From sequence record LR990704: a stretch of 64,000 nucleotides of DNA. One strand, 5' to 3'. The DNA comes from Escherichia phage vB_Eco_NR1. The notes beneath the pieces are model-generated. The model saw nothing but the letters and a program-made list of their open reading frames with translations, was not told the DNA's origin and did not search any database. Below are positions 5,054-58,753 of this stretch, in pieces. Each line of letters starts with the position of its first letter. Within the stretch, counting starts at the first letter, position 1. The translations under genes and the position numbers were made by a program.

Positions 5054-5066
5054 TCTTTGACGATTT

Positions 5067-5097
5067 AAGGGACCTTCGGGTCCCTTTAGTTGTTTTT
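5067..5097 (+). terminator. intrinsic terminator after gene 23
   Basis: AAGGGACC-TTCG-GGTCCCTT stem-loop followed by a T-rich tract. Confidence 0.8.
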
Positions 5098-5101
5098 ATG
5101 G

Positions 5102-5109
5102 TATAAATA
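5102..5109 (+). promoter_or_regulatory. late promoter (TATAAATA) for gene 24
   Basis: Exact TATAAATA 28 nt upstream of the gene 24 ATG, just after the gene 23 terminator. Confidence 0.75.
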
Positions 5110-5136
5110 AATCATATAAACCAAAAGGAAAGCGCA

Positions 5137-9853: not shown

Positions 9854-9866
9854 AATATTTCCTCAG

Positions 9867-9874
9867 TATAAATA
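9867..9874 (+). promoter_or_regulatory. late promoter (TATAAATA) for uvsW
   Basis: Exact TATAAATA 30 nt upstream of the uvsW ATG. Confidence 0.7.
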
Positions 9875-9903
9875 TAGATATATTTATTACATGGTATTTA
9901 GAC

Positions 9904-20267: not shown

Positions 20268-20321
20268 TCCTCATGTTATGTCAGTAAGACTACTATAACA
20301 CAACACGAGGGACTTGTAAAC
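20268..20321 (-). repeat. 54 bp early promoter/5' leader cassette, copy 1
   Basis: 53 of 54 nt identical to 35115..35168; minus strand GTTTACA, 17 nt, TATAGT, then leader ending in GAGGA. Confidence 0.85.
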
Positions 20322-22378
20322 TACATTTTGAACTTTTTAGACATTCCGTTGATGTTAACCAAAGAAGCTAAGATTTGAGAAACTTCATTTTCCTCTTCTT
20401 TTGATTCTTCTACAAGGAATTGATTAAATCCAGCCATTGGACGAACTTCACCAGTTTCCATTAAATGGTCGCCATCATATACTGATTCTTCTAATTGTTC
20501 AGAAGGAGGAACGATTGTACCTTCTATTAGATACTTGTTATAAGCAGTTTCTTTCATAAAGTACGTGCTCACTTTATTAATCTTCAGTAAAATTCCACGC
20601 GGTAGAATAACTTCAGCTTCTGATGGAAATCCTGATAAATGACCTGGAACGATAACTTTGATTCGCTCAGCTCCTTTAATTACCATACCCACGCTAATTT
20701 CAGCATCTTCATTAGCATATGTAGAATGACTACCCATATGCATCAAATCTTCTGCATCAACGGAACCTTCTCCTTCACCAGAAAATACTGCACCGGAATC
20801 ATCTAGAGCCATATAGTTTTTACCATGCTCACCGAAGATATTTGGTTTAAGCGATGTGGATACGAAGTTCTTGAAATAGAACATTTTATTTTCAATGTTA
20901 TGACGCAAAGTTTTAAAGGTAACTTCTTGCCCACGATAAAGAGTAGTTCCTGGAGGAAGAACAGAACCTTTAGCAAATGCAGAATCCAACGTCTCGATGT
21001 GTTTAATAGCTCGTTCCATATATTCTTCACGGGTAGAATCAGGTTTACCTAAAAGGAACGAGTTCATTTCAACATATGAATCTGCACAATAATCTTCAAT
21101 TACATCAGACTCAGCCTGAGTTAATCCTTTTGGAGTTACTTCAGTGCTTGCGTATTCATATGCCTGAGCGGCAGATTCATTAATCAATTTATAAATGCCA
21201 TTCATGACAAATTGAATAATAGCTGTCTTTTCATCTGGTGTAGCTTTAGAACCTTTAACTAAATCATTGATAATTTTCTTAATAACATCAAAGCTATTAG
21301 AAATATTAATGTCAGCAAGATCGCTTAAAATTTTATCAGTTTTATAATCAAAGAATTCTTTATTCTTTAAATATTCTTGAGAACCTTGATATGTTATATC
21401 GCTCTGCAACTTGATAGATGGATCACGTAAACGTGCATGGGCTAATGCAATATGATTTCGGAAACTTTCTAGTTCATAATCGTTAGATTTAAAACGAGAA
21501 GCACTTCTCATACCACCGATAGCTCCTTTGCTAAAGTTTGAACCAATCTGAATAACGCCAGAGTTCATCGGACCTTCTGCTTTATATACCGGAACTTTAG
21601 ATTCAAACTCTTGATATTTCTTAGCAGCGAAGCTATCACCCTGAAGTGAAGCATCAACAGTAGAATATTGAGCTTGTGCTGCTAATCGACGACTAATTTT
21701 AGTTTTCTGAATAACAGCTTGGTCCGTGCGCTTATCATTTTCTAAAGCAATAGAAGCAGCAACAGCAACAGCTTTAGGAACAGCATTACCTGTTTTAACA
21801 TCTACATAAACATCACCAATCTTTGATTCAACTTTTGCGAATAACTCAGTTGAAATAGGAGGTACACCTGGAATGTCTTCTAAATTGGCATTTTTACGGT
21901 AAACCATAATATATGCGTACTTTTTATCATAATCCCAGATTTCCTTTAAAAGAACATATCGACCTGCTCCTTTAGTACGTACTAAACGGTCAGCAATAAC
22001 TTGCATTTGACGAGCTGCGCCATTTGTTTTACTTTTTAGTACGCGGAATAGGCATGCGTCGATTTTATACTGTTTCATTGTTTGAAGAGCAGTATCAAAA
22101 ACAGCATTAATGACGCCAATTGGATTTCCACCCAAGTTTCTAAGCTTGACTAACGATAATTTCTCGTTGACACCTATCATTACGATATGCATCATTTTGT
22201 CGCCTGGCTTAACGTTTTTATTCGTATCACCGCCAGAGGTGTATGTACAAAATCTAAATCCAGGAAGCACGCTTTCTTCACCGGCTTGAATAGCAAAAAT
22301 TTGTGGTATTTTATGCTTAGGATTTAAGTTAACAACCGGCGCCGAAGCGCCGTCAAATAATTCTGTAATAAGTTCCAT
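20321..22378 (-). CDS. Alt-like ADP-ribosyltransferase, second paralogue (685 aa)
   Basis: N-terminus MELITELFD.. almost identical to Alt; C-terminal region has Arg (YRGQ), STS (FVSTSL) and EAE (PSEAEVILPRG) ART motifs. Confidence 0.85.
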   Translation of the reverse strand: MELITELFDGASAPVVNLNPKHKIPQIFAIQAGEESVLPGFRFCTYTSGGDTNKNVKPGDKMMHIVMIGVNEKLSLVKLRNLGGNPIGVINAVFDTALQTMKQYKIDACLFRVLKSKTNGAARQMQVIADRLVRTKGAGRYVLLKEIWDYDKKYAYIMVYRKNANLEDIPGVPPISTELFAKVESKIGDVYVDVKTGNAVPKAVAVAASIALENDKRTDQAVIQKTKISRRLAAQAQYSTVDASLQGDSFAAKKYQEFESKVPVYKAEGPMNSGVIQIGSNFSKGAIGGMRSASRFKSNDYELESFRNHIALAHARLRDPSIKLQSDITYQGSQEYLKNKEFFDYKTDKILSDLADINISNSFDVIKKIINDLVKGSKATPDEKTAIIQFVMNGIYKLINESAAQAYEYASTEVTPKGLTQAESDVIEDYCADSYVEMNSFLLGKPDSTREEYMERAIKHIETLDSAFAKGSVLPPGTTLYRGQEVTFKTLRHNIENKMFYFKNFVSTSLKPNIFGEHGKNYMALDDSGAVFSGEGEGSVDAEDLMHMGSHSTYANEDAEISVGMVIKGAERIKVIVPGHLSGFPSEAEVILPRGILLKINKVSTYFMKETAYNKYLIEGTIVPPSEQLEESVYDGDHLMETGEVRPMAGFNQFLVEESKEEENEVSQILASLVNINGMSKKFKM

Positions 22379-22381
22379 GAT

Positions 22382-24478
22382 TTATCCTTGAACGAACTTG
22401 TAAGGCATGTTTGTAATATCTATGCAAGACGCAATAATTCCAAGAGATGATTCTACTTTCTGTTTAATATTTGATGAAACAAATGATGCAAAGTCAACTC
22501 TGTCTTCTATTTCAATATCACCTGTCATTGCAACTACTTCGCCAGTTTCCATTAAACGGTCACCGTCATAAATTACCGATTCGGTGAGTTCTTCGGTGGT
22601 CATAACTTCAGCTTGAATGAGTTTTGTATTATTAGACGTGGTTCCGTCATTATTAGAAGCATCAGTTATTTTATTAACTTTGACCATCAATCCGCGCGGT
22701 AGAATAACTTCGGCTTCTGTTGCTATTCCGAGACTTCCTGGATATACAACATTAACTTTATGAGCTCCATCAATTGCCCATCCTATTTGAACTTTAACGT
22801 ATTCAGGATTTTCTTTATACGCTCTTATTTCGTTTGGATTAATAGTTATTCCTTCTTCATTTTTATCAACTGTTAATTCATTGCGAGCTTCTGGTTCTAA
22901 AAGACCAATACCAGCATGTGTAATTCCAAAACGTCCAAAAATGATAGGAGTTAAAGAAGTAGATACAAAATTTCTGAAATAGAACACTTTATTTTTAACT
23001 AGTGCTTCGTATATAGGAGCAGTCATACTTTGAGCACGATAAACTGTAATGCCTTCCGGTATACGGTCACCATTTTCAAAAGCTGAATCTAAATTATTTA
23101 TAGCAGATTCAATTTCTTTTTCACTCATTATATCATATCGTTCTGGATTGTAACGACCTAAAAGAAGATTATTGATGTCTGTATATCCTGAACCACAATA
23201 CTCTCTAATGCCGCGCTTTTGTGATGGAGTATATTTAGAACCATCACGGGCAATAGTAATATCAATCATTGGACCTGCACCAATTCCGGAAAAGCTATAA
23301 ATCATTCGTTTGAGGAATTTAGTTTTTGCTGCATTCCAGGCATTTTTAGTTATTTCTCCCCAGACTTCATCTGGTTGCCCTTTACGAGTTTTATTATGTT
23401 TATCAAGCCAATTATCTTTATATTCTTCAAAGAATTTATTAACAGCTGCTGCGTATTTCTCTAAACATTTTATTGAAGTAGTTGGTTCATTTTTGATTGC
23501 GTTAAAAATTACATCTTTAATTTTTTCGGAAACTTCATCAACCTCACTTTTTGAAAAGAATTTATAGTCATAGTGAAGTTCATTCGCAGTTCCTTCGGCA
23601 ATAATTTTTGCTGCCTTAGTTTTAGAAGCTAATGAATTAATTCCAAGCTTCATTTCTTCTGCTTCGGGAATTAAAGGAGCGGTAGCAGGTTTATTGAAAT
23701 TAGCTGCGGTAGATTCATACTTCTGGAATAATTCACTTTCAAATCTAGAAGACTCTAACGATTGACTTTGTGCAATTGCTCTACGGGAAATTTTAACTTT
23801 AACGATTACAGCTTGGTCAGAACGTTTATCGTTTTCTTGTGCAATAGATGCTGCAATTGCCTCATTTTTAGTTACTTGAGCCCCAGTATCTTTATTGATA
23901 TAAACATCACCGACCTTCGATTCAACTTTAGTAAAGAGCTCGGTACTAATTTCCGGAACTCCTGGAATGTCTTCTAGTGATACATTTTTGCGATGTATAA
24001 GAATATATGCATACTTTTTATCATAATCCCAGAGTTCCTTAAGAAGGACGTATCTGCCACCTGAACGACTACGGATAAGTCTATCAGCAATAACTTGAAT
24101 TTGTCGAGCTTGACCAGCGGTTTTAGACTTAAGAATACGGAGCATACAGGCATCAATTTTATACTGACGCATTGTTTGCATTGCAACAGTAAAAACTGAA
24201 TTGATATAATTAATTGGGCTTGGACCAAGACCTTTTAATTTAGCAATTGAACCTTTAGCAGTTAATGTAAAAGGAACAATATGCATCATTTTATCGCCCA
24301 TCTTTAAATCGCGATTAGTATCACCTCCAGATGTATAGGTACATAAACGAAAGCCTGGCTGTTCAATTGCATCATCAACGTGAACTGAAAAAATTTGCGG
24401 TATTTTCTTCTTTGGATTTAAGTTTGTAATCGGAAGAGTAGTATCTTCGTCAAATAATTCTGTAATAAGTTCCATCAT
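22382..24478 (-). CDS. alt: Alt ADP-ribosyltransferase (capsid-packaged, injected)
   Basis: 698 aa; MMELITELFDEDTTLPITNLNPKKKIPQIF.. recognised as T4 Alt; R / STS / EAE motifs; late promoter and SD upstream. Confidence 0.9.
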   Translation of the reverse strand: MMELITELFDEDTTLPITNLNPKKKIPQIFSVHVDDAIEQPGFRLCTYTSGGDTNRDLKMGDKMMHIVPFTLTAKGSIAKLKGLGPSPINYINSVFTVAMQTMRQYKIDACMLRILKSKTAGQARQIQVIADRLIRSRSGGRYVLLKELWDYDKKYAYILIHRKNVSLEDIPGVPEISTELFTKVESKVGDVYINKDTGAQVTKNEAIAASIAQENDKRSDQAVIVKVKISRRAIAQSQSLESSRFESELFQKYESTAANFNKPATAPLIPEAEEMKLGINSLASKTKAAKIIAEGTANELHYDYKFFSKSEVDEVSEKIKDVIFNAIKNEPTTSIKCLEKYAAAVNKFFEEYKDNWLDKHNKTRKGQPDEVWGEITKNAWNAAKTKFLKRMIYSFSGIGAGPMIDITIARDGSKYTPSQKRGIREYCGSGYTDINNLLLGRYNPERYDIMSEKEIESAINNLDSAFENGDRIPEGITVYRAQSMTAPIYEALVKNKVFYFRNFVSTSLTPIIFGRFGITHAGIGLLEPEARNELTVDKNEEGITINPNEIRAYKENPEYVKVQIGWAIDGAHKVNVVYPGSLGIATEAEVILPRGLMVKVNKITDASNNDGTTSNNTKLIQAEVMTTEELTESVIYDGDRLMETGEVVAMTGDIEIEDRVDFASFVSSNIKQKVESSLGIIASCIDITNMPYKFVQG

Positions 24479-32513: not shown

Positions 32514-33739
<1,226 letters not shown>

Positions 33740-35171: not shown

Positions 35172-36759
<1,588 letters not shown>

Positions 36760-36760
36760 A

Positions 36761-36781
36761 ATAAAATGGGCCTTGCGGCCC
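36761..36781 (-). terminator. GC stem-loop between nrdB and denA
   Basis: GGGCC-GCAA-GGCCC stem-loop followed by AUUUUAUU just before the denA ATG. Confidence 0.5.
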
Positions 36782-36786
36782 ACTCC

Positions 36787-37965
36787 TTAAAAGTATTTTT
36801 TAAAACTCATCATAACTTTATCATCAACATCATTATCAATCTGTGCAACAAGGTAAGATGACAGTTCTACTTCTTGTGGCGCGGATTGAACATTATCAGA
36901 ATTAAGATATTCACGAATCCAAGGATATGGATGTTTAACCGGAGCATCGGTAATCGGGCATGGAAGACCACACTGTTTCATACGAGATACAGTTAAGTAA
37001 TCAATAAAGCTCCACATGCTATTTGTATTTAATCCAGGAACATCGCCATCTTTAAATAAATGAACTGCCCAATCTTTTTCTTGGCGGTTAACTTCCATGA
37101 AAATATCAACTGCTTCTTGTTCACACTCTTGAGCAATTTTAACCCATTGATCGCCATCAGTACCAGATTGAAGTTGACGAATAATATATTGGGTGCCTTT
37201 AAGGTGAAGCTGTTCATCGCGTGCAATGAACTTCATAATCTTGGCATTACCTTCCATGATTTCCATGTTCTTATGGAAGTTAAAGGTACATGCGAAAGAT
37301 ACATAAAAACGAATAGCTTCCAATGCGTTAATTACATGCAAACAGAGGTAAAGAGATTTCATTAGCTCACGCTTCCAATATGTCTCATGCTCAATAGCAT
37401 CTTCAATAACGTCTTCGTCTGCATTAATTTCTTTTTGGTATTCGATATCAGCTTTAGCGTTTTCCCAATAACGAGTTTTAATCAGAACATCATCATAATA
37501 ACGTCCAATGGATTCAGCACGTTTCATAATAGCTTCATCTAATACAATTTCATCAAATACCTTCGATGGATCAGTATAAAGATTTCGCATGATATGTGTA
37601 TATGAACGGCTGTGAATAGTTTCACTAAAAGTCCATGTAGCAACCCATGTATCAAGGCTTGGGTCTGAAATTAATGACATAAGTACAGCAGATGGCGCAC
37701 GACCCTGAATGCTATCCAAAAGTGATTGATACTTCAGGTTATTAGTAAAAATATTTTGCTGATACTGAGGAAGCTTGTTAAATTGTGCAGCATCCATCAT
37801 TAAGTTTACTTCTTCAGGACGCCAGAAAAATGACAATTGCTTTTCGGTTAAATCTTCAAAAACTTTATGGCGTTGAATATCATAACGCGCAATACCAAGA
37901 CCTGAACCGAAGAACATAGGTTCTTTTAAAACATCAACTGGATTTGTATTAAAAACTGTAGACAT
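36787..37965 (-). CDS. nrdB: ribonucleotide reductase beta subunit, uninterrupted
   Basis: 392 aa contiguous ORF; no intron. Confidence 0.95.
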   Translation of the reverse strand: MSTVFNTNPVDVLKEPMFFGSGLGIARYDIQRHKVFEDLTEKQLSFFWRPEEVNLMMDAAQFNKLPQYQQNIFTNNLKYQSLLDSIQGRAPSAVLMSLISDPSLDTWVATWTFSETIHSRSYTHIMRNLYTDPSKVFDEIVLDEAIMKRAESIGRYYDDVLIKTRYWENAKADIEYQKEINADEDVIEDAIEHETYWKRELMKSLYLCLHVINALEAIRFYVSFACTFNFHKNMEIMEGNAKIMKFIARDEQLHLKGTQYIIRQLQSGTDGDQWVKIAQECEQEAVDIFMEVNRQEKDWAVHLFKDGDVPGLNTNSMWSFIDYLTVSRMKQCGLPCPITDAPVKHPYPWIREYLNSDNVQSAPQEVELSSYLVAQIDNDVDDKVMMSFKKYF

Positions 37966-37999: not shown

Positions 38000-38791
38000 T
38001 CACATATTGTGTATAAGCACTTCGGTCTGAAATGATGCACCCTTCTTTTGCTTCCTATACATGGTTTCAAAATATTCAATTTTGAAATTATTAGAAAGGG
38101 CCCAATCTTTTAAAATATAATTATTAATATCGTCTGATAGATTATTAGTGATAATAAATTTAGACTTCGATTGTTTAATTTTGTCTAATAATTCTAATTC
38201 ATCCTTTTCTTCCCAGCCTGAATATTTAAATTTAGTAGAAAGATACGGCGGGTCAATGAATAAATTTTTGTTTTCAAAATCCAAATCTCTGAATGATTTA
38301 TTACTAAATGTAAATCGGTGCTGTCTATTTTTAAATTCAGAAAATTTATCCTGCTGAGACTTATTAAAAGAAGTTCTGGAATACTTGGCTCTATTGGCGA
38401 AAGCCGCGTTATAATTCCCATTACTAGAAAATCGGATTAACGAACTGAATGAAAATAAATGTAGAACATAAAGATATAATCCGTTTTTGGTTTTATCGTA
38501 TTCTTTTGACAGATTATAAAAAGGTGCTGAATCTTTGTCATTCAAATTAAAATCTTCAATAATTTTAACTATATCATTAATTGAAGATGATTTCATCTTT
38601 TTATACATGTCTATAAGAGGAGTATTAATATCATTACATATAACATCTCTCTGACAATTCATAGAAAATCCAAGACCACCACAAAAAGCATCCAAAACAG
38701 GCTTATCGTCAAAGCGGTTTGAAAATTGTCTAATAAATGGCATATACTTATGTTTTGCACCTGGATATGTTATGGCAGGTAGGTCTTTCAT
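38000..38791 (-). CDS. Dam-family N6-adenine DNA methyltransferase-like protein
   Basis: 263 aa; N-terminal YPGAK, motif I DAFCGGLGF (FxGxG) and motif IV IDPPYL in alpha-class order; AT-rich relative to the flanking nrd genes. Confidence 0.8.
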   Translation of the reverse strand: MKDLPAITYPGAKHKYMPFIRQFSNRFDDKPVLDAFCGGLGFSMNCQRDVICNDINTPLIDMYKKMKSSSINDIVKIIEDFNLNDKDSAPFYNLSKEYDKTKNGLYLYVLHLFSFSSLIRFSSNGNYNAAFANRAKYSRTSFNKSQQDKFSEFKNRQHRFTFSNKSFRDLDFENKNLFIDPPYLSTKFKYSGWEEKDELELLDKIKQSKSKFIITNNLSDDINNYILKDWALSNNFKIEYFETMYRKQKKGASFQTEVLIHNM

Positions 38792-38834: not shown

Positions 38835-41099
38835 TCATAATTTACAGGATGAACAATCTTCAGCTTTTGGAGTTTCTATTTCATAATCATCAGTACCAGA
38901 ACCATCACGGGTATTATGATAATAGAAATTTTTTCCGCCAAAATACCAAAAGTACAAAAGGTCATCAATCATTACAGACATTGGAACCTTTCCTTTTGGA
39001 AAAATCTGCGGGTCATAATATGTATTTGCTGAAGCTGATTGACATACCCATTTAAGCATAATAGCTACCTGCGTAAGATAAGGTTTATTACCTTTCTTAG
39101 CTAATTTCCATGTATAATCATAGAGGTCTATGTTATGCTCAATATTGGGCACGACTTGATTAAAGGAGCCCTCTTTTGATTCTTTAACAGAGACTGGTCC
39201 ACGTGGAGGCTCGATACCGTTTGTACTGTTAGAAACTTGGGAAGATGACTCACATGGCATAAGTGCTGATAATGTGCTATTACGGATGCCAAAGAGCTTA
39301 AGGTCTTCCCGCAGCGACGACCAGTCACAAACGTATTTTGGAGCTGCGATTTGGTCAATCTTTTTATTGTACCAGTCGATAGGTAATTCGCCTCGAGACC
39401 AACGAGTGTCTGAATAATATTCGCAAGGTCCTTTTTCTTTGGCGAGCTTAATGGATGCTTTAATGAGTCCATACTGTAATCTCTCAAATAGTTCATGTGT
39501 TAAATCGTTAGCATCTTCATAAGAAGCAAAGTTACTTGCCAGCCAAGCTGCATAGTTAGTAACACCTACACCGAGGTTACGACGCTTTTTAGCTTTTTCT
39601 GCTTCAGGAACTGGATATCCTTGGTAATCCAAAAGATTATCAAGAGCACGAACTTGGACTTCTGCCAATTCATTAATTTTATCTTGGTCTTGCCAGTCAA
39701 AATTATCCAGTACGAATGCAGATAACGTACACAATCCAATTTCAGCATCAGGACTATTCACATCATTTGTTGGAATAGCAATTTCACAACACAAGTTACT
39801 CTGACGAATAGGTGCCTTTTCACGAATAAACGGAGTATAGTTATTCGTATTATCAATGAACTGTACATAAATCCTTGCTGTTCCTGAACGTTCAGTCATG
39901 AGCAATTCAAATAGTTCACGGGCTTTAATACGCTTTTTACGAATATTAGGGTCTTTTTCTGCTGCTTCGTATAATTCACGGAAACGGTCTTGGTCTTTAA
40001 AATAAGAATAATAAAGCTCTCCACCCATTTCATGTGGACTGAACAAAGTAATGTAATCGTTCTTTCCAAATCGTTCCATCATCAAATCATTCAGCTGAAC
40101 GCCATAATCCATATGACGAATGCGGTTTTCTTCTACGCCTTTGTTATTTTTCAAAACGAGAAGATTTTCAACTTCCAAATGCCAAATAGGATAATAAGCA
40201 GTAGCAGCGCCGCCACGAATTCCACCCTGTGAACATGATTTAACTGCAGTCTGAAAATGTTTCCAAAAAGGAATAACACCAGTATGACGTACTTCACCCA
40301 TGCCAATCTTAGAACCTTCAGCACGAATCATACCAACATTAATACCAATTCCAGCGCGTTTAGAGATATATTCAACAATTGAAGCGGAAGCCTTATTGAT
40401 AGACTTCAATGAATCACCTGCCTCAATAACAACACATGAACTAAACTGTCGAGTTGGAGTACGGCAACCAGCCATAATAGGAGTTGGCAATGAAATCTGT
40501 CGAGTAGATACTGCTTCATAAAAACGGATAACATGTTTTAATCTATCAACAGGTTCATCTTGATGCAGTGCCATTCCAATAGTCATAAATGCAAACTGCG
40601 GAGTTTCATAAATTTGACCAGTGGTTTTATCTTTAACTAGATATTTTTCTTTTAATTGCATCGCACCGGAATAAGTAAATTCCATATCCCGCTCGTGCTT
40701 AATTTTTGATTCTAAAAATGTAATTTCTTCTGCTGAATATTTTGACAATAATTCAGGGTCATATTTACCTGCATTTACACAGTAAGAAATATGGTCAATA
40801 AATGAACGCGGTTCATACTGCCCGTAAACATGCTTACGAAGAGCAAACATTAAACAGCGTGCAGCTACATATTGATAATCAGGCTCTTCAACCGAAATAG
40901 AATTCGCAGCAGCCTTAATTACAATAGTTTGAATGTCATCAGTGGTCATTCCATCACGGAGATATGATTTAATATTTTCATATAATTCATAAGGATCTAC
41001 AGATGTTCCTTCAGCTGCCCAAGATAAAACTTTAATAATTTTTTGTGGGTCAAAGCTCTGAGAAACACCACTACTTTTGATAACATTAATTAATTGCAT
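38835..41099 (-). CDS. nrdA: ribonucleotide reductase alpha subunit
   Basis: 754 aa; [22 protein letters not shown].. recognised as T4 NrdA. Confidence 0.97.
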   Translation of the reverse strand: MQLINVIKSSGVSQSFDPQKIIKVLSWAAEGTSVDPYELYENIKSYLRDGMTTDDIQTIVIKAAANSISVEEPDYQYVAARCLMFALRKHVYGQYEPRSFIDHISYCVNAGKYDPELLSKYSAEEITFLESKIKHERDMEFTYSGAMQLKEKYLVKDKTTGQIYETPQFAFMTIGMALHQDEPVDRLKHVIRFYEAVSTRQISLPTPIMAGCRTPTRQFSSCVVIEAGDSLKSINKASASIVEYISKRAGIGINVGMIRAEGSKIGMGEVRHTGVIPFWKHFQTAVKSCSQGGIRGGAATAYYPIWHLEVENLLVLKNNKGVEENRIRHMDYGVQLNDLMMERFGKNDYITLFSPHEMGGELYYSYFKDQDRFRELYEAAEKDPNIRKKRIKARELFELLMTERSGTARIYVQFIDNTNNYTPFIREKAPIRQSNLCCEIAIPTNDVNSPDAEIGLCTLSAFVLDNFDWQDQDKINELAEVQVRALDNLLDYQGYPVPEAEKAKKRRNLGVGVTNYAAWLASNFASYEDANDLTHELFERLQYGLIKASIKLAKEKGPCEYYSDTRWSRGELPIDWYNKKIDQIAAPKYVCDWSSLREDLKLFGIRNSTLSALMPCESSSQVSNSTNGIEPPRGPVSVKESKEGSFNQVVPNIEHNIDLYDYTWKLAKKGNKPYLTQVAIMLKWVCQSASANTYYDPQIFPKGKVPMSVMIDDLLYFWYFGGKNFYYHNTRDGSGTDDYEIETPKAEDCSSCKL

Positions 41100-41416: not shown

Positions 41417-41633
41417 ATTGTTTTTCCGTTAAAACAGTAATATCGTAGTAACAGTCAGAAGAAGTTTTAACTGTGGAAATTTTATTATCAAAATACTCAC
41501 GAGTCATTTTATGAGTATAATATTTTTTACCATAAATGATAATAGGCTGTTCTGGTCCTGGAACTTCTAACTCGCTTGGGTTAGGAAGTGTAAAAAGAAC
41601 AACGCCAGAAGTATCTTTAAATCGTAAAATCAT
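41370..41633 (-). CDS. hypothetical protein, 87 aa
   Basis: ORF with ATGA coupling to the td stop; overlaps the next ORF by 47 nt in another frame. Confidence 0.5.
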
Positions 41634-42490
41634 ATTGCCATTTTCCCTTTAATTGCTGGATGCGATTCATAATTTTCAAGGATAAAATCTTTCGGTTTCA
41701 TGTATTCAGTTAACCAGTAAAGCTGTGTTTCGGTGTCACAATTTCCAAACTCTATAGGCCAATCAATTTTAAGTTCACATAGTTCTTTAGGCTCACGACG
41801 TAAAATTTCTTTACATTGCTCAGTATGATTCATATAGATGTGAGTATTACCACCAGAAAATATCAAATCTCCTGGGATAAGATTACACATCTTAGCCACA
41901 ATATGCGTCAAGGCAGCGTACGAGGCAATGTTGAATGGCAATCCCAAGAAAACATCTACACTTCTTTGGTACCATTGTAAATCAAGATAACCATTACGCA
42001 CATTAAACTGATAGAACATATGACAGGGCGGTAATGCCATTTGATTGATTTCAGCTGGATTCCATGCTGAAACGATTTGACGTCGATCAGTTGGTAATTT
42101 TTTAATACGATCAATAGTTTCAACTAATTGATCCACACCACCGAAATCACGCCATTGTTTACCGTATATAGGACCAAGTTCACCACTATGATATCCTAGG
42201 TCTTTAGCCTGGTTTTCATAGTTATCGTCCCAAATAGTTTTGCCTTGAATAAGACTACCATGAGTGCGAAGACGTAAATCATTAACATTGGTAGAACCGG
42301 AAATAAACCATAAAAGCTCAGCAATGCATGCATTCCAGGCGAGCTTCTTAGTTGTTACTGCAGGAAAACCTTTACTTAAATCCCAGCGTAATTTAGTACC
42401 GAACAAAGCAATTGTTCCTGTGCCCGTTCGGTCATCGGTTTCATAGCCATTTTCAAAAATGTCTTTAATTAAATCTTGGTATTGTTTCAT
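41630..42490 (-). CDS. td: thymidylate synthase, uninterrupted
   Basis: 286 aa contiguous ORF (..[10 protein letters not shown]..); no group I intron. Confidence 0.97.
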
Positions 42491-42535
42491 TTAGTACCTT
42501 ATATAAATTATAATACATTTTATGAAGCTAAATAA

Positions 42536-42883
42536 TCAATACGGTTTAGCATCAAATTTTCTCTCAATTTCAGGCGTGAAATATAATTCTTTACCGCGTT
42601 TGGAAAAGCGACCAATAATATGATAATTATTCTCATCAAACGTGATATTACCAATATCCATAGCTTTCAACCAAATATCGATATTTCTATCCAACTTTAT
42701 GTCAAAATTCCAATACGGAGAACTATTACCGAAAATACTGCAAGCGGATTCAGTAAAACAACTACTATAAATCTTGTCTTTAGGAACTACTAATTGATAA
42801 ACGCCTTTAATAAACTGAGGACCCTGCCACTTTGGCTGTTTCTCATCTTTTTCTAATAGAATAGGGTAATAATTAAAATTCAT
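42536..42883 (-). CDS. hypothetical protein, 115 aa, between frd and td
   Basis: ORF filling the frd-td interval; AT-rich. Confidence 0.6.
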   Translation of the reverse strand: MNFNYYPILLEKDEKQPKWQGPQFIKGVYQLVVPKDKIYSSCFTESACSIFGNSSPYWNFDIKLDRNIDIWLKAMDIGNITFDENNYHIIGRFSKRGKELYFTPEIERKFDAKPY

Positions 42884-42902
42884 ATTTCCGCCACGCGTTA
42901 TT

Positions 42903-43729
<827 letters not shown>

Positions 43730-44039: not shown

Positions 44040-44342
44040 TTATTTTTGAATTTTATCGAGCCACTTACCAAGCTTAATCATTTCTTTAGTAGCCTTTTCC
44101 ATACTTCTGAACTTGACCAATAGAGGATAGGTATCGACACCCATAACTAAACTGGTTACAAGACTGTGTTCACCCACAAGCCATAACGAATACGTTTGAA
44201 TATCGAGCCCGTAATTTCTGTCTTTATGGACCCGTACACCCATCACTTCAAATTTCTCACTAGCTTTTTCTACCGCATCCAGGAAATCATCTTTAGTCAT
44301 ATTAGGCCTTAAAAGTTTTTCGCAAAAGTTCAATGATTTCAT
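44040..44342 (-). CDS. hypothetical protein, 100 aa
   Basis: ORF. Confidence 0.6.
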   Translation of the reverse strand: MKSLNFCEKLLRPNMTKDDFLDAVEKASEKFEVMGVRVHKDRNYGLDIQTYSLWLVGEHSLVTSLVMGVDTYPLLVKFRSMEKATKEMIKLGKWLDKIQK

Positions 44343-46012: not shown

Positions 46013-46080
46013 TTTTATTTCCTTTTTAATTTAATTAACAGTTGGTGCTATGACGATGTATGACCTCATAGCTGGTCAGT
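46013..46080 (-). promoter_or_regulatory. gene 32 autoregulatory leader (dyad with pseudoknot potential plus A/U-rich tract)
   Basis: mRNA-sense GCUAUGAGGUCAUACAUCGUCAUAGC dyad followed by UUAAAUUAAAAAGGAAAUAAAA directly before the ATG. Confidence 0.7.
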
Positions 46081-46095
46081 GAGATAATTATAATC

Positions 46096-46103
46096 TATTT
46101 ATA
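46096..46103 (-). promoter_or_regulatory. late promoter (minus strand) for gene 32
   Basis: Reverse-complement TATAAATA about 85 nt upstream of the gene 32 ATG. Confidence 0.6.
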
Positions 46104-46111
46104 ATAAGCAA

Positions 46112-54104: not shown

Positions 54105-57100
54105 ATGGCTACTTTAAAACAAATACAATTTAAAAGAAGCAAAACCGCAGGTGCACGTCCTGCTGCTTCAGTATTAGCCGAAGGTGAATTGGCTATAAAC
54201 TTAAAAGATAGAACACTTTTTACTAAAGATGATTCAGGAAATATCATTGATTTAAGCATTTCCACTGGCGGTAATATCAGTGGAAATATCACTCAAACTG
54301 GAGATTATTTACAGAACGGTACATATAATCTCAATGGAAATCAGTTTGTTTATGCAGGAAAATATATTGAATTTTTACCTAAAACTGCAGGTAATGGCGC
54401 TTGGGCAAATCAACACCTAAATAAAGCCCCTATTTTTACAGATTTAAGTTCAACTACTTCTACTTCAGAATACCATCCGCTAATTAAACAGCGTTATAAA
54501 GATGGGACTTTTTCTGTTGGTACGCTAGTAAACGAAGGAAGTTTTAAAATTCATTATATCAATGAATCGGGAACTTCAAAATACTGGACATTTCGTAGAG
54601 ATGGTGGATTTGTTGTTGATACAGGAAGTTTGACAGTAACAGATGGAAATATTTCTGCTTCTGGTAATATTAATTCGGCTACTGGGGTAGTTTCTGCGCC
54701 ACGTGTCAACACAAAAAATATTAACATAAGCACGAAAACCTTTATCCCGAATAATGACGCGGGTTATGACATTGTTTCTTTACCTACCTGGGTTTATAAC
54801 CCACCGGCCGATGGTTCCGACAATACTACAAATGGATTGAACTATTTGCGTAAATTACGTGCATCAAGCGCATCAAGTATTTTCCATGAAATTGTTGATT
54901 GTCGAAAAGGTAAGCCGCAAGAAATTTCTTGGTGGACTGGTGTAGGACCTTCGTCTTTCCAGTGGGCGTTTGATACCTCTGGACGTATTACTGCAGGTAA
55001 ATCTATTTCTGTAGGTCTTCCTGATAGTGGTACAAATGGTCGTTATCCTTTAGATTCTGCAATTTCTATTGGTATTGCGATTGGCGATAACGATACCGGT
55101 ATTAAATGGGTCCGCGATGGCGTTTATGACCTGATGGCTAACGGTATTTCATCTGCTACCATTTTGAATAATGGTATTAATAGTACTAAAAAATTGATGG
55201 TTGGTTATAGTCGAGATTCCGGTTCTACTTGGGATTTCCCAAATAATAACCAAGCAATGTTTACTGCGCGTACCGATGTTGATGGTAATAATAACGGCGA
55301 TGGACAGACTCATATCGGATATAGCAGCAATGCTAAGATGTATCACTATTTCCGTGGTACAGGTCGTATGTCCGTTAGTATGGGTGATGGGCTTCTTGTT
55401 GAGCCTGGCATTTTAGATATTAAAACCGGTTCTAATAGCGTTGCTATTAGAGCAGACGGAACAATTAACTCCACCCAGCGTATTTCTATGCGTACGGGCT
55501 TGTTTTTAAATGGTGATGATAATACTAATGCTTTATCGTTTAAAGCTCCTTCCGGTGTAGATGGTACCAAAACCATTAACTGGGATGCAGGTACTCGTAA
55601 TGGTCAGAATAAAAATACCGTAACCATTAAAGCATGGGGTAATTCATTTAACGCTGAAAAGGGTAATAGAGAAACTGTATTCGAAGTTTCAGATTCACAA
55701 GGTTATTATTTCTACGCTCAACGTACTAATCCTGCGTCAGGTCAAACAGTAGGTCCGGTTAACTTTAAATTTAACGGAACTGTCGAAACAGGCCATATCA
55801 TAGGCCTTGGTAATATAAGTGCCTCCGGTACAGGTTCTTTTGGTGGCAATGTTACTATGTCTAACGGTTTGTTTGTCCAAGGTGGTTCTTCTATTACAGG
55901 CCAAGTAAAAATTGGTGGAACAGCTGACGCATTAAGAATTTGGAATGCTGAATACGGCGCAATTTTCCGTCGTTCTGAAAGTAACTTTTATATTATTCCA
56001 ACTCTTAAAGATGCTGGAGAATCAGGTGGTATAAGTAATCTTAGACCATTGATAATAGAACTGAACACCGGCACAGTTAAAATGTCGCATGATGTTCATT
56101 TAGGAGATTCTGGATCTGGTACAGGATTATTACAAGTAAGTAATAGTCTTAAAACTATTAAAATGATATGTCCAGTAACTATTAATGAACGTAATGCAGC
56201 GCTTACTCTAGATTCTCCTTCATCTTCTTCTGCTAATTATTTACAAGGTTCTAAAGCTGGAATTAGATCGTGGTATGTTGGTCTTGGTGGCGCTGGAAGT
56301 GATTTATCGCTTTATAGTCAATCATATGGACACGGTCTTGTTATAAGCGATAATTTCGTGTCAATCAGTAAACCTCTTAAAGTCGGAAATGCCCAACTAG
56401 GAACTGACGGTAATATTACCAACGGTTCTGGTAATTTTGCTAACTTAAACACCACGCTAAATCGTAAAGTTAATTCTGGATTTATTACTTATGGAGCAAC
56501 TGCTGGATGGTATAAGTTTGCAACAGTAACAATGCCACAATCCACTTCTACGGTCTTCTTTAAAATAGCCGGTGGTTCTGGATTTAATAGTGGATTATTC
56601 ACACAATGCAATATTGCTGAAATTGTTTTACGTACTAGTAATGAAAGACCTGCTGACTTAAATGCTGTATTATACACAAGAACAATTGCAGCTGCATTTA
56701 AAAATATTGCAGTTAATAACGTCTCTGGAGATACATATGACATTTATGTTTATGCCGGAACATATTGCAATCAATTAACTTGTGAATGGTCATGTACCGA
56801 AAATGCTACTGTTAGCGTTATTGGTATTAACTCATCTACCCAATCACCTGTGGATGCTCTTCCAGATACAGCAGTTGATGGGCAAGTTGCTAATGTTCTT
56901 AATAACTTGGTTGATCGCGGCAAAGTTAAGCGTTATGAAGCCGATTCTGAAATAGCTATTAATAACCAAACTGGTATTCGTATTAGAAGCAACAGCGATA
57001 AAACTGGTTCTGTTGCTACAATGCTACGAAATGATGGCAGTAGTTTTTATATTCTGTTTACAGATAAAAATGCCACCGATGGCGAAGCAACTGTTAACGG

Positions 57101-57905
57101 TGATTGGAATAGTAAGCGTCCTTTCGCAATTAACTTAACAACAGGCGAAGTATTAATGAATAACGGCATAGCTGTTCGCAGTGCTGCTTTATTCTATAAT
57201 AGCATAAATGTCAAAGATAATGGTTCTATTAACTTTGATAAGTCTGGTGCTAACCCAAGAAATATGAGAATATTTCATGCTGGCGATGCTTCTCGTGGTA
57301 ACCGTATTGAAATTGCCGATGAAACTAACTATATTGCTTACTTTGAAAAAGCTCCAGGTGGAGCTAACCGCTTTGTAGTAAATAATGCTACTGTAGCTGG
57401 TGTTAACCAAATGAATTCATTTGGTATTAATATCAATAACGCACTTGGTGGAAATAGTATAGCATTTGGTGATAGCGATACTGGTATTAAGCAAAATGGC
57501 GATGGATTATTAGACATATATGCGAACAGCGTACAAGTATTCCGTTTCCAAAACGGTGATTTGTACTCATATAAAAATATAAATGCTCCAAACGTTTATA
57601 TTCGTTCTGATATTCGCTTAAAATCTAATTTCAAACCTATCGAAAATGCACTTGATAAAGTTGAAAAACTCAATGGTGTCATTTATGATAAAGCTGAATA
57701 CATCGGTGGAGAGGCAATTGAAACTGAAGCGGGTATTGTAGCTCAAACGTTACAAGACGTTTTACCAGAAGCCGTCCGTGAAACAGAAGACAGCAAGGGT
57801 AATAAAATACTCACTGTTTCTTCTCAAGCCCAGATTGCTCTTCTGGTTGAAGCTGTGAAAACGCTTTCTTCTCGTGTAAAAGAACTTGAATCTAAACTTA
57901 TGTAA
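54105..57905 (+). CDS. 37: long tail fibre distal subunit gp37 with C-terminal intramolecular chaperone-like domain
   Basis: 1266 aa; conserved N-terminus (MATLKQIQFKRSKTAGARPAAS..); C-terminal ..NAPNVYIRSDIRLKSNFKPIENALDKVEKLNGVIYDKAEY.. resembles self-cleaving chaperone domains. Confidence 0.93.
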   Translation: MATLKQIQFKRSKTAGARPAASVLAEGELAINLKDRTLFTKDDSGNIIDLSISTGGNISGNITQTGDYLQNGTYNLNGNQFVYAGKYIEFLPKTAGNGAWANQHLNKAPIFTDLSSTTSTSEYHPLIKQRYKDGTFSVGTLVNEGSFKIHYINESGTSKYWTFRRDGGFVVDTGSLTVTDGNISASGNINSATGVVSAPRVNTKNINISTKTFIPNNDAGYDIVSLPTWVYNPPADGSDNTTNGLNYLRKLRASSASSIFHEIVDCRKGKPQEISWWTGVGPSSFQWAFDTSGRITAGKSISVGLPDSGTNGRYPLDSAISIGIAIGDNDTGIKWVRDGVYDLMANGISSATILNNGINSTKKLMVGYSRDSGSTWDFPNNNQAMFTARTDVDGNNNGDGQTHIGYSSNAKMYHYFRGTGRMSVSMGDGLLVEPGILDIKTGSNSVAIRADGTINSTQRISMRTGLFLNGDDNTNALSFKAPSGVDGTKTINWDAGTRNGQNKNTVTIKAWGNSFNAEKGNRETVFEVSDSQGYYFYAQRTNPASGQTVGPVNFKFNGTVETGHIIGLGNISASGTGSFGGNVTMSNGLFVQGGSSITGQVKIGGTADALRIWNAEYGAIFRRSESNFYIIPTLKDAGESGGISNLRPLIIELNTGTVKMSHDVHLGDSGSGTGLLQVSNSLKTIKMICPVTINERNAALTLDSPSSSSANYLQGSKAGIRSWYVGLGGAGSDLSLYSQSYGHGLVISDNFVSISKPLKVGNAQLGTDGNITNGSGNFANLNTTLNRKVNSGFITYGATAGWYKFATVTMPQSTSTVFFKIAGGSGFNSGLFTQCNIAEIVLRTSNERPADLNAVLYTRTIAAAFKNIAVNNVSGDTYDIYVYAGTYCNQLTCEWSCTENATVSVIGINSSTQSPVDALPDTAVDGQVANVLNNLVDRGKVKRYEADSEIAINNQTGIRIRSNSDKTGSVATMLRNDGSSFYILFTDKNATDGEATVNGDWNSKRPFAINLTTGEVLMNNGIAVRSAALFYNSINVKDNGSINFDKSGANPRNMRIFHAGDASRGNRIEIADETNYIAYFEKAPGGANRFVVNNATVAGVNQMNSFGININNALGGNSIAFGDSDTGIKQNGDGLLDIYANSVQVFRFQNGDLYSYKNINAPNVYIRSDIRLKSNFKPIENALDKVEKLNGVIYDKAEYIGGEAIETEAGIVAQTLQDVLPEAVRETEDSKGNKILTVSSQAQIALLVEAVKTLSSRVKELESKLM

Positions 57906-57907
57906 AA

Positions 57908-57935
57908 GAGGGCTTCGGCCCTCTAAGGATTTTTA
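57908..57935 (+). terminator. stem-loop after gene 37
   Basis: AGAGGGC-TTCG-GCCCTCT stem-loop, short T-tract, directly before the gene 38 start. Confidence 0.55.
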
Positions 57936-58721
57936 ATGGCAATTGTAGGTGTTCCTGGCTGGATTGGTGAATCTGCCGTGAATGAAACTGGACAGCGTTG
58001 GATGGATGCTGCGATGAGAGCAGTTCGTGTTTCAGTTCCTGGTTGGATGAGCTCAATGGCTGGGCAATCTAAAGAAGTATATTATAGCATTGGTGCTAGC
58101 AATTCTTACAATAAAGACACACTAATAAATTGGATAAAAGCCCAAGGAAGTACTCCTGTTGTTATTACTATTACAGGAAATATCGTTTCTTCATCGACAG
58201 GTCAACCATGCTTAGATTTTCCTAGCTCATTAACTAATGCATACGTGACACTTAATATCAATTCAGGCGTGCATGTTTGGGGTCGCGGCGGGAATGGTGG
58301 AAATAACTCTGCTGGCGGAGCAGGAGGAACTGCAATAAATAACGGAATTGGAACTAGATTACGTATTAATAACAATGGTGTTATCGCAGGTGGCGGTGGC
58401 GGCGGTGGCGGCGGATACTACTCTCCTTTTTCACAAATGAGATTGACTTTTGGCGGTGGAGGTGGTCGTCCATTTGGTGCTGCTGGTGGGTCTGCTAATA
58501 TGGAACAGGGTGCTACTGCTGGTACTATTTCTGCGCCCGGTAAAGGGTCTGTCAATGGTATCTATAATGGCGGGAATGGTGGTGATGCCGGTGCCGCAGG
58601 AGGTAAATGTAATATTCGCGGTCAAGGATCAGAATATAACGGCGGCGCTGCTGGTAAAGCTGTTACTGGTAATGCTCCAACTTGGACTAAAGTTGGCACA
58701 ATATATGGTTCAAGAGTATAA
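57936..58721 (+). CDS. 38: gp38 receptor-recognising adhesin (T2-type) with glycine-rich motifs
   Basis: 261 aa; conserved N-terminus MAIVGVPGWIGESAVNETGQRWM..; glycine-rich motifs and a G9 run separating variable segments. Confidence 0.88.
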   Translation: MAIVGVPGWIGESAVNETGQRWMDAAMRAVRVSVPGWMSSMAGQSKEVYYSIGASNSYNKDTLINWIKAQGSTPVVITITGNIVSSSTGQPCLDFPSSLTNAYVTLNINSGVHVWGRGGNGGNNSAGGAGGTAINNGIGTRLRINNNGVIAGGGGGGGGGYYSPFSQMRLTFGGGGGRPFGAAGGSANMEQGATAGTISAPGKGSVNGIYNGGNGGDAGAAGGKCNIRGQGSEYNGGAAGKAVTGNAPTWTKVGTIYGSRV

Positions 58722-58753
58722 TTTTTGAATAAATATCCTTAAAAGGAGGGTCT

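Follow-up and report, generated by a model that had tools for sequence, protein, structure and literature searches.

Introns and homing endonucleases of the T-even phages

Whether td and nrdB contain introns varies among the T-even phages, a variation recognized from the late 1980s onward (papers cited in PMC2988022). The load of homing endonuclease genes varies as well. The number of these genes is 15 in T4, 2 in RB14, 1 in T2, and zero in RB26 (PMC2993671, Table 5), and in the literature on this subject, "T4 remains the outlier" (PMC2988022). The original prediction for the DNA considered here took T4 to carry introns with I-TevI in td and I-TevIII in nrdB. Both T4 introns are indeed present, but the T4 I-TevIII is a truncated, inactive relic (T4 annotation; PMC1865063).

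Work with the individual enzymes has defined what they need in a target. I-TevI requires the sequence 5'-CNNNG-3', in which position -27 is C and position -23 is G (PMC5009752, PMC2988022), and the class of A/T-rich, single-substitution triplets within this motif has been reported to be well tolerated (PMC4065259, PMC5009752). Among natural phage substrates, the motif plus spacer of RB32 td alone gave reduced activity with a Tev-TALE nuclease (PMC4065259). I-TevIII cleaves at -14/-16 (PMC1865063). In crosses between T4 and T2, the nrdB intron moves by way of MobE, which nicks T2 nrdB at nt 122-126; a polymorphic codon of nrdB, codon 42, reads AAG in every phage lacking mobE and is followed by a conserved FFWRPEE block (PMC2790892).

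Anatomy of td and nrdB in phage vB_Eco_NR1

The window, meaning the whole 64-kb stretch of Escherichia phage vB_Eco_NR1 DNA that was analyzed, is collinear with T4 positions 101,464-165,456, which span genes 20 to 52 (blastn against NC_000866), and its DNA identity with T4 is mostly 94-98% outside variable spots. The phage is T4-like, a member of Tequatrovirus, and a mosaic of known alleles. The GenBank phage collection contains no record identical to the window; its best matches, at ~96-97% over 25 kb, are vB_Eco_BGP, 303Ecol101PP, teqsoen, JK38, and RB18. Orthologous genes and overall synteny are shared with T4, and the insertion sites of the T4 elements can be placed with single-base precision. 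The genes and intron sites in question are as follows:

41630..42490, minus strand: td, thymidylate synthase, 286 aa; a single uninterrupted ORF of 861 nt, with no gaps against spliced T4 Td
41931..41968, minus strand: empty td intron site, between 41942 and 41941, with the equivalent of the 38-bp I-TevI homing site (-27 to +11); T4 intron boundary mapped by alignment
36787..37965, minus strand: nrdB, small subunit of ribonucleotide reductase (RNR), 392 aa; a single uninterrupted ORF of 1179 nt
[quoted passage not shown]
38835..41099, minus strand: nrdA, 754 aa; uninterrupted and collinear with T4 nrdA

When T4 is spliced in silico, the td intron of 1017 nt lies after CDS nt 549 (...TTCTTGGGT then CTACCG...), and the nrdB intron of 598 nt lies after CDS nt 664 (...TTTTGCGT then GTACC...). 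Collinearity by blastn breaks exactly at these two introns: window 41938/41943 corresponds to T4 143543/144565 in td, and window 37289/37292 corresponds to T4 138457/139058 in nrdB. An intron is absent from both td nt 549 and nrdB nt 664, where the window reads through base for base in comparisons with spliced T4, T2, and RB32. The td DNA is 100% identical to that of slur07 and JK38 and 99.2% identical to that of RB14 (GenBank phage collection). The nrdB gene is equal in length to those of T2 and RB32 and aligns with them without gaps, at 93% and 91% nt identity, respectively. Thus, the original prediction that td and nrdB are uninterrupted is borne out: each is a single ORF, the T4 introns are missing exactly at their insertion sites, and the alignment to T4 that had been proposed as a check places both empty sites to the base.

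A hidden short intron had been expected to show itself as a gap in the alignment of Td or NrdB with its T4 counterpart. The Td alignment is gapless. NrdB does contain a variable patch at aa ~163-200, with a net gain of 4 aa relative to T4. This patch was considered as a hidden intron and rejected, since it is in frame and the NrdB proteins of T2 and RB32 have the length of the window protein. Because T2 and RB32 also align with the window NrdB without gaps, T4 is the variant within this patch, and there is no intron in it. A scan at the Rfam gathering threshold yielded no group I intron in the window; it also yielded none in a T4 control that holds both introns. Taken together, the alignments establish that td and nrdB of the window are intron-free, are of the T2/RB32/RB14 type, and have nothing hidden inside.

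Empty sites of homing endonuclease genes

The homologous interval of T4 contains six homing endonuclease genes: segD, segE, the I-TevIII relic, mobE, I-TevI, and segG. All six elements are missing from the window by tblastn, blastn collinearity, and HMM profiles. When all 15 T4 homing endonucleases were compared with the window by tblastn, there was no match below E = 0.01, and profile HMMs for the seg/I-Tev and mob proteins of T4 found none below E = 0.03 in its six-frame translation. As a positive control, the same profiles were run on the homologous T4 stretch, where they recovered segD, segE, I-TevI, segG, and mobE with E values between 1e-29 and 1e-75. All segments of the window of at least 30 bp without a T4 counterpart were also listed, and their ORFs, together with some neighbors, were scanned with Pfam and, for some, with PHROGs. 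These segments encode a second Alt ADP-ribosyltransferase, a gp37/gp38 adhesin cassette, a D12 methyltransferase, and four small ORFs with no assigned function; Pfam found no nuclease domain in the ORFs of these non-T4 segments. The sites at which T4 carries free-standing seg genes are short intergenic gaps, and one gene for a GIY-YIG protein is found elsewhere in the window:

5054..5136, strand not applicable: intergenic region between genes 23 and 24, the empty segD site; an 83-bp gap where T4 has segD
9854..9903, strand not applicable: intergenic region between inh and uvsW, the empty segE site; a 50-bp gap where T4 has segE
46013..46111, strand not applicable: intergenic region between genes 32 and 59, the empty segG site; a 99-bp gap where T4 has segG; the RB32 gap is also 99 bp
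36349..36783, minus strand: denA, endonuclease II (EndoII), 99.3% identical to T4 DenA; Pfam GIY-YIG at E = 5.4e-6

DenA is the only GIY-YIG protein in the window, and it is not a homing enzyme. The earlier statement that no seg- or mob-like ORF is present therefore agrees with tblastn, the HMM profiles, and Pfam, with the caveat of wording that denA does have a GIY-YIG domain. The same can be said of the intervals that had been described as compact, which measure 50 bp (inh-uvsW), 99 bp (32-59), and 83 bp (23-24). Every site within the interval at which T4 has an intron or a free-standing endonuclease gene is an empty allele in the window.

Distribution of the intron-free state

In the GenBank phage collection, td is matched in 668 records, a number that is inflated, as is every record count given here, by RefSeq/GenBank duplicates. 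Matches to the T4 td intron occur in 260 records and span at least 80% of the intron length in 197; only ~30% of sequenced T4-like records have a full-length td intron. The T4 nrdB intron is matched over at least 80% of its length in 118 records (~18% of T4-like records), and the remaining matches to it include short pieces in records of Pectobacterium and Klebsiella phages. Homing-site haplotypes were counted with short junction queries against the same collection. A 100-nt query across the empty td site of the window is uninterrupted in 219 records, and a query across the intron-deleted td junction of T4 is uninterrupted at 91-93% identity in 134 records, T2 included (T2-type), although these two sets of records may overlap. 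A survey of IMG/VR with Td returned 80 loci, mostly of distant relatives, and was unsuited to counts of homing-site haplotypes.

The closest likeness is to T2 and RB32, which also have an intron-free td of 861 nt, an nrdB of 1179 nt, no mobE, and a 348-nt ORF between frd and td. The gene order denA-nrdB-nrdA-nrdA.1-nrdA.2-td-ORF-frd is common to the window and to T2 and RB32; RB14, slur07, and JK38 also belong with these closest intron-free counterparts. RB32 further resembles the window in its 99-bp gap between genes 32 and 59, which lacks segG. In contrast, T4 carries the td and nrdB introns, I-TevI, the defective I-TevIII, segD, segE, mobE, and segG, none of which is found in the window. 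Intron-free td and nrdB genes, together with few homing endonuclease genes, are the majority condition of T4-like phages, and T4 is the exception. Since this state is usual among the relatives of T4 and has long been known, the absence of introns and endonucleases from the window, while correct, is ordinary, already known, and not notable.

The td site as a possible target of I-TevI

The 38-bp I-TevI site of the window (-27 to +11) differs from that of T4 at 10 of 38 positions, all synonymous: -24, -22 to -19, -1, +1, +3, +6, and +9. Four of these changes fall in the spacer at -22 to -19, where Arg CGC becomes AGA and Ser TCA becomes AGT, and five (-1, +1, +3, +6, and +9) lie around the insertion point. 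T2 differs from T4 at 6 of the 38 positions, and the td allele is further from T4 in the window, with an identity of ~83% over nt 1-720, than in T2, with an identity of 96% over the whole gene. The cleavage motif CNNNG is present as CAAAG at -27 to -23 and retains both critical bases (C-27 and G-23), and its inner triplet, AAA at -26 to -24, belongs to the A/T-rich, single-substitution class. The window and RB32 td have a motif/spacer variant in common, CAAAGAAGT, to which RB32 adds three extra spacer changes. I-TevI tolerates variation in its target sequence, although activity was reduced with this related RB32 variant (PMC4065259).

Two further features bear on the repair that would follow cleavage. 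Both the I-TevI site and its flanking exons depart from the T4 sequence by about 17-23%, and because the identity of the flanking exon is low (~83%), repair from a T4 donor should be lowered. In addition, the base at -1 is A in the window and T in T4. The P1 helix of a group I intron requires U at -1, and thus, a homing event must co-convert the -1 base.

The divergence of the site from T4 (26%, 10/38) was compared with that in the rest of td (16.6%). The excess is not significant (one-sided binomial p = 0.086), and targeted recoding of the I-TevI site was rejected on this account, with selected resistance kept only as a minor alternative, which is weighed below. By its sequence, the site is recognizable but diverged, not "intact", and the efficiency with which it would be cleaved is uncertain. 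Susceptibility of td to I-TevI is plausible, then, but not assured, and it may be reduced.

The nrdB site as a probable target of I-TevIII and MobE

The I-TevIII homing site is better conserved. Compared with intron-deleted T4 nrdB, it shows no change between -31 and -6 or between +1 and +30, and its only differences from T4 are at -2, -5, -32, -35, and -38. The site is thus nearly intact, with T4-identical sequence around -14/-16. The check for intact recognition sequences that had been proposed therefore gives a nearly intact sequence for I-TevIII and a diverged one for I-TevI, with its 10 differences in 38.

Since the I-TevIII of T4 is defective, the relevant enzyme for the nrdB intron in a cross with T4 is MobE, for which the target region in the window is:

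37816..37852, minus strand: MobE target region, nrdB nt 114-150, with codon 42 = AAG and the FFWRPEE block; from comparison with T2 (PMC2790892)

Over the larger region of nt 91-165, only 2 of 75 positions differ from T2, the mapped target, and codon 42 is the AAG found in phages without mobE. It is likely from these similarities that nrdB would be susceptible both to a MobE nick in its 5' region and to the intact I-TevIII of RB3-type phages.

Introns in relatives with window-type backbones

Introns are found exactly at the empty sites of the window in three relatives with window-type backbones, U5 (td), vB_Eco_BGP (nrdB), and 236Ecol005PP (td). They differ from the window in having the intron and in having T4-like sequence immediately around it. 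The td gene of U5 (AY262155) contains a 1016-nt intron with an I-TevI-type ORF, and its exon 1 is 97.1% identical to that of the window and 83.8% identical to that of T4. T4-like sequence spans -28 to +1, the base at +3 agrees with neither allele, and the sequence beyond, upstream of -34 and downstream from ~+6, is of the window type. Because this T4-like tract brackets both the cleavage and the insertion sites, it is as expected for homing with limited co-conversion. In vB_Eco_BGP, nrdB has a full-length intron of ~1.1 kb with a 269-aa ORF annotated "homing endonuclease"; it is inserted exactly at the position corresponding to window 37289|37290, and the adjoining exon is T4-like.

The third case is less direct. 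The td gene of 236Ecol005PP has a 254-nt intron without an ORF at the same insertion site, and its exon 1 is 98.2% identical to that of the window. Window-type markers are kept between the cleavage and insertion sites. Later, ordinary recombination within a 17-nt identical stretch (-18 to -2) would fit this arrangement better than direct homing by I-TevI. An endonuclease gene splits the nrdA homologue of the same phage. An exact junction of window-type exon and intron is present in 3 records.

Introns without an ORF are also seen at the T4 td insertion site in other phages; besides the 254-nt intron of 236Ecol005PP, there is one of 320 nt in HP3 and one of 446 nt in vB_EcoM_F1. In all three records, td is annotated as two separate CDS, of which the F1 record gives a name to the 5' part alone. 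These introns look like stages in the loss of the endonuclease ORF.

The exon sequence just 5' of each empty site departs from that of T4, with identity falling from ~94-97% to ~84-85% (nrdB, 37292-37960; td, 41943-42493); next to the sites, exon identity is 83-85%, compared with ~97%. Among the phages sampled in the junction survey, those with introns resembled T4 in their flanks (94-100% over 50-nt halves), and the intron-free phages had no more than ~93% identity across the 100-nt junction. This pattern fits the idea that exon sequence hitch-hikes with the introns.

Proposed homing and the alternatives

It is very probable that the window consists of empty alleles throughout, with td and nrdB genes like those of T2, RB32, and RB14, that this state is the common one in the group, and that homing enzymes of co-infecting relatives act on such sites. 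In the proposed sequence of events, a homing enzyme from a co-infecting relative would cut or nick near an empty site, the break would be repaired from the intron- or endonuclease-bearing genome, and this repair would copy the element, together with a short flanking stretch of donor DNA, into the recipient. Cutting and conversion of vB_Eco_NR1 itself would be expected by extension from the anatomy of its sites, the absence of the elements, the frequency of this state, and the invaded relatives. The original prediction called the phage a likely target of homing, a suggestion that is reasonable and partly supported. For nrdB, this view draws on the MobE region and the I-TevIII site; for td, it is weakened by the divergence of the I-TevI site. 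The introns in BGP nrdB and in the td genes of U5 and 236Ecol005PP are in its favor as well.

The td allele might instead be resistant to I-TevI ("immune") and a poor recipient, in which case its intron-free state would be maintained, and not merely uninvaded. In the stretch of cleavage site and spacer that encodes Gln-Arg-Ser, T4 has CAA CGC TCA and the window has the synonymous CAA AGA AGT, with a switch of codon family for both Arg and Ser right beside the cut, and the 10 differences in the site include the five binding-region changes and the A at -1. Moreover, RB32, whose td is the sole natural phage td with reduced Tev nuclease activity (PMC4065259), has the same motif/spacer variant, and the junction survey found zero intron-free records with a site at least 99% identical to that of T4. 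Nevertheless, the excess divergence of the site falls short of significance, the window lacks the three further spacer changes of RB32, and C-27 and G-23 are kept next to a triplet of the tolerated A/T-rich class (PMC4065259). The td of U5, furthermore, belongs to the same allele family and received the full intron. Resistance of the td allele thus appears unlikely. Somewhat more doubtful still is the idea that the window-type td is a selected escape variant, made I-TevI-resistant or splicing-incompatible by CAA-AGA-AGT, the five binding-region changes, and the A at -1. If it were true, intron-free T-even phages would persist beside carriers through target-site immunity, not through lack of exposure.

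Loss of former introns would also leave sites like these. A lineage that once had introns could have lost them precisely, by recombination with an intron-free allele or through a copy derived from spliced RNA, so that the empty sites would be secondary. Such a history matches the published cycle of gain, degeneration, and loss of homing elements (PMC2988022, PMC5009752), and degenerate introns are common in relatives, as seen in the ORF-less td introns of 254-446 nt and in the truncated I-TevIII of T4. No feature of the window separates loss from never having gained an intron, but the exon flanks are of the intron-free type (T2/RB32/RB14) and not of the T4-like type that travels with introns, which argues against a recent loss. 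This explanation is improbable. A short intron or an unrecognized nuclease gene hidden among the small ORFs at the junctions is scarcely credible by comparison. The ORF-less introns of relatives show that a td intron can be as short as 254 nt, the Rfam scan, having missed the T4 introns in the control, cannot exclude introns, and ORFs without an assigned function are present at 33419-33739, 42536-42883, 43484-43729, and 44040-44342. However, td and nrdB have the gene lengths of T2 and RB32 and match base for base across both sites, which refutes a hidden intron in these two genes. The ORFs in question encode 81-115 aa with no Pfam nuclease domain, at least the one between frd and td is also present in the endonuclease-poor T2 and RB32, and the gaps at the seg sites are just 50-99 bp.

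Other genes at the junctions

Two of the junctions discussed above contain genes other than endonuclease genes:

38000..38791, minus strand: D12-class N6-adenine DNA methyltransferase at the nrdA-nrdB junction, a place taken in T4 by nrdB.1 and mobE; Pfam PF02086, E = 5.5e-24
42536..42883, minus strand: 115-aa ORF with no assigned function between frd and td (overlapping genes in T4); phrog_1928, no Pfam match

The methyltransferase is 33.6% identical to T4 Dam, which is also its closest solved structure (E = 4e-38). It is present in only 7 phage records, four of them at ~98% identity, with BGP at 82% and fDHCT2 and CF-SP2 at ~79%. Two of the intron-bearing relatives, BGP and 236Ecol005PP, resemble the window in having this gene (82% and 98.6% identity, respectively). 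The insertion begins right after ...GAGTCACCAAC within the intergenic sequence common to the window and RB32.

At the nt level, the ORF between frd and td is 96.6% identical to RB32ORF229c, and in T2 its position is occupied by a 348-nt ORF. It is flanked by a 12-nt direct repeat with 11 of 12 positions matching (42482-42493 and 42898-42909; TAAATGAAA(C/T)AA on the coding strand), and the td-proximal copy of the repeat includes the td start codon. The RB32 counterpart is annotated as "flanked by 9 bp repeat".

Several other segments of the window differ from T4. Two tandem, full-length Alt-type ADP-ribosyltransferases are encoded on the minus strand at 20321-22378 and 22382-24478 (685 and 698 aa, both Pfam ADPrib_exo_Tox), where T4 has one alt together with alt.-1 and alt.-2, short remnants of a duplication. 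A 313-bp segment without a T4 counterpart, between pseT and pseT.1, contains a 106-aa ORF (33419-33739, minus strand; phrog_2364, no Pfam match), and near this ORF T4 cd.4 and cd.5 are missing (T4 133651-133969 is unmatched). At 54255-58728 on the plus strand, the window encodes a distal tail fiber protein, gp37 (1266 aa), which has a Peptidase_S74 chaperone domain at its C terminus, and a gp38 adhesin of the T2 type (261 aa, Pfam GP38). This gp37/gp38 cassette is unrelated or only weakly related to that of T4.

The absence of endonucleases had been thought to make the other cargo at the same junctions more notable. The cargo is real, consisting of the methyltransferase, the 115-aa ORF, and the 106-aa ORF, but most of it is already known as well. 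The rarer feature of these junctions is the Dam-like methyltransferase that occupies the mobE slot, to be judged as a finding of its own.

Implications

By itself, the empty state of these sites matters little. The practical gain is a confident intron-free annotation of the region, with the empty sites placed to the base. With such sites, vB_Eco_NR1 could act as a recipient in homing crosses, and the comparisons with U5, BGP, and 236Ecol005PP illustrate the footprints of co-conversion on a backbone of the window type.
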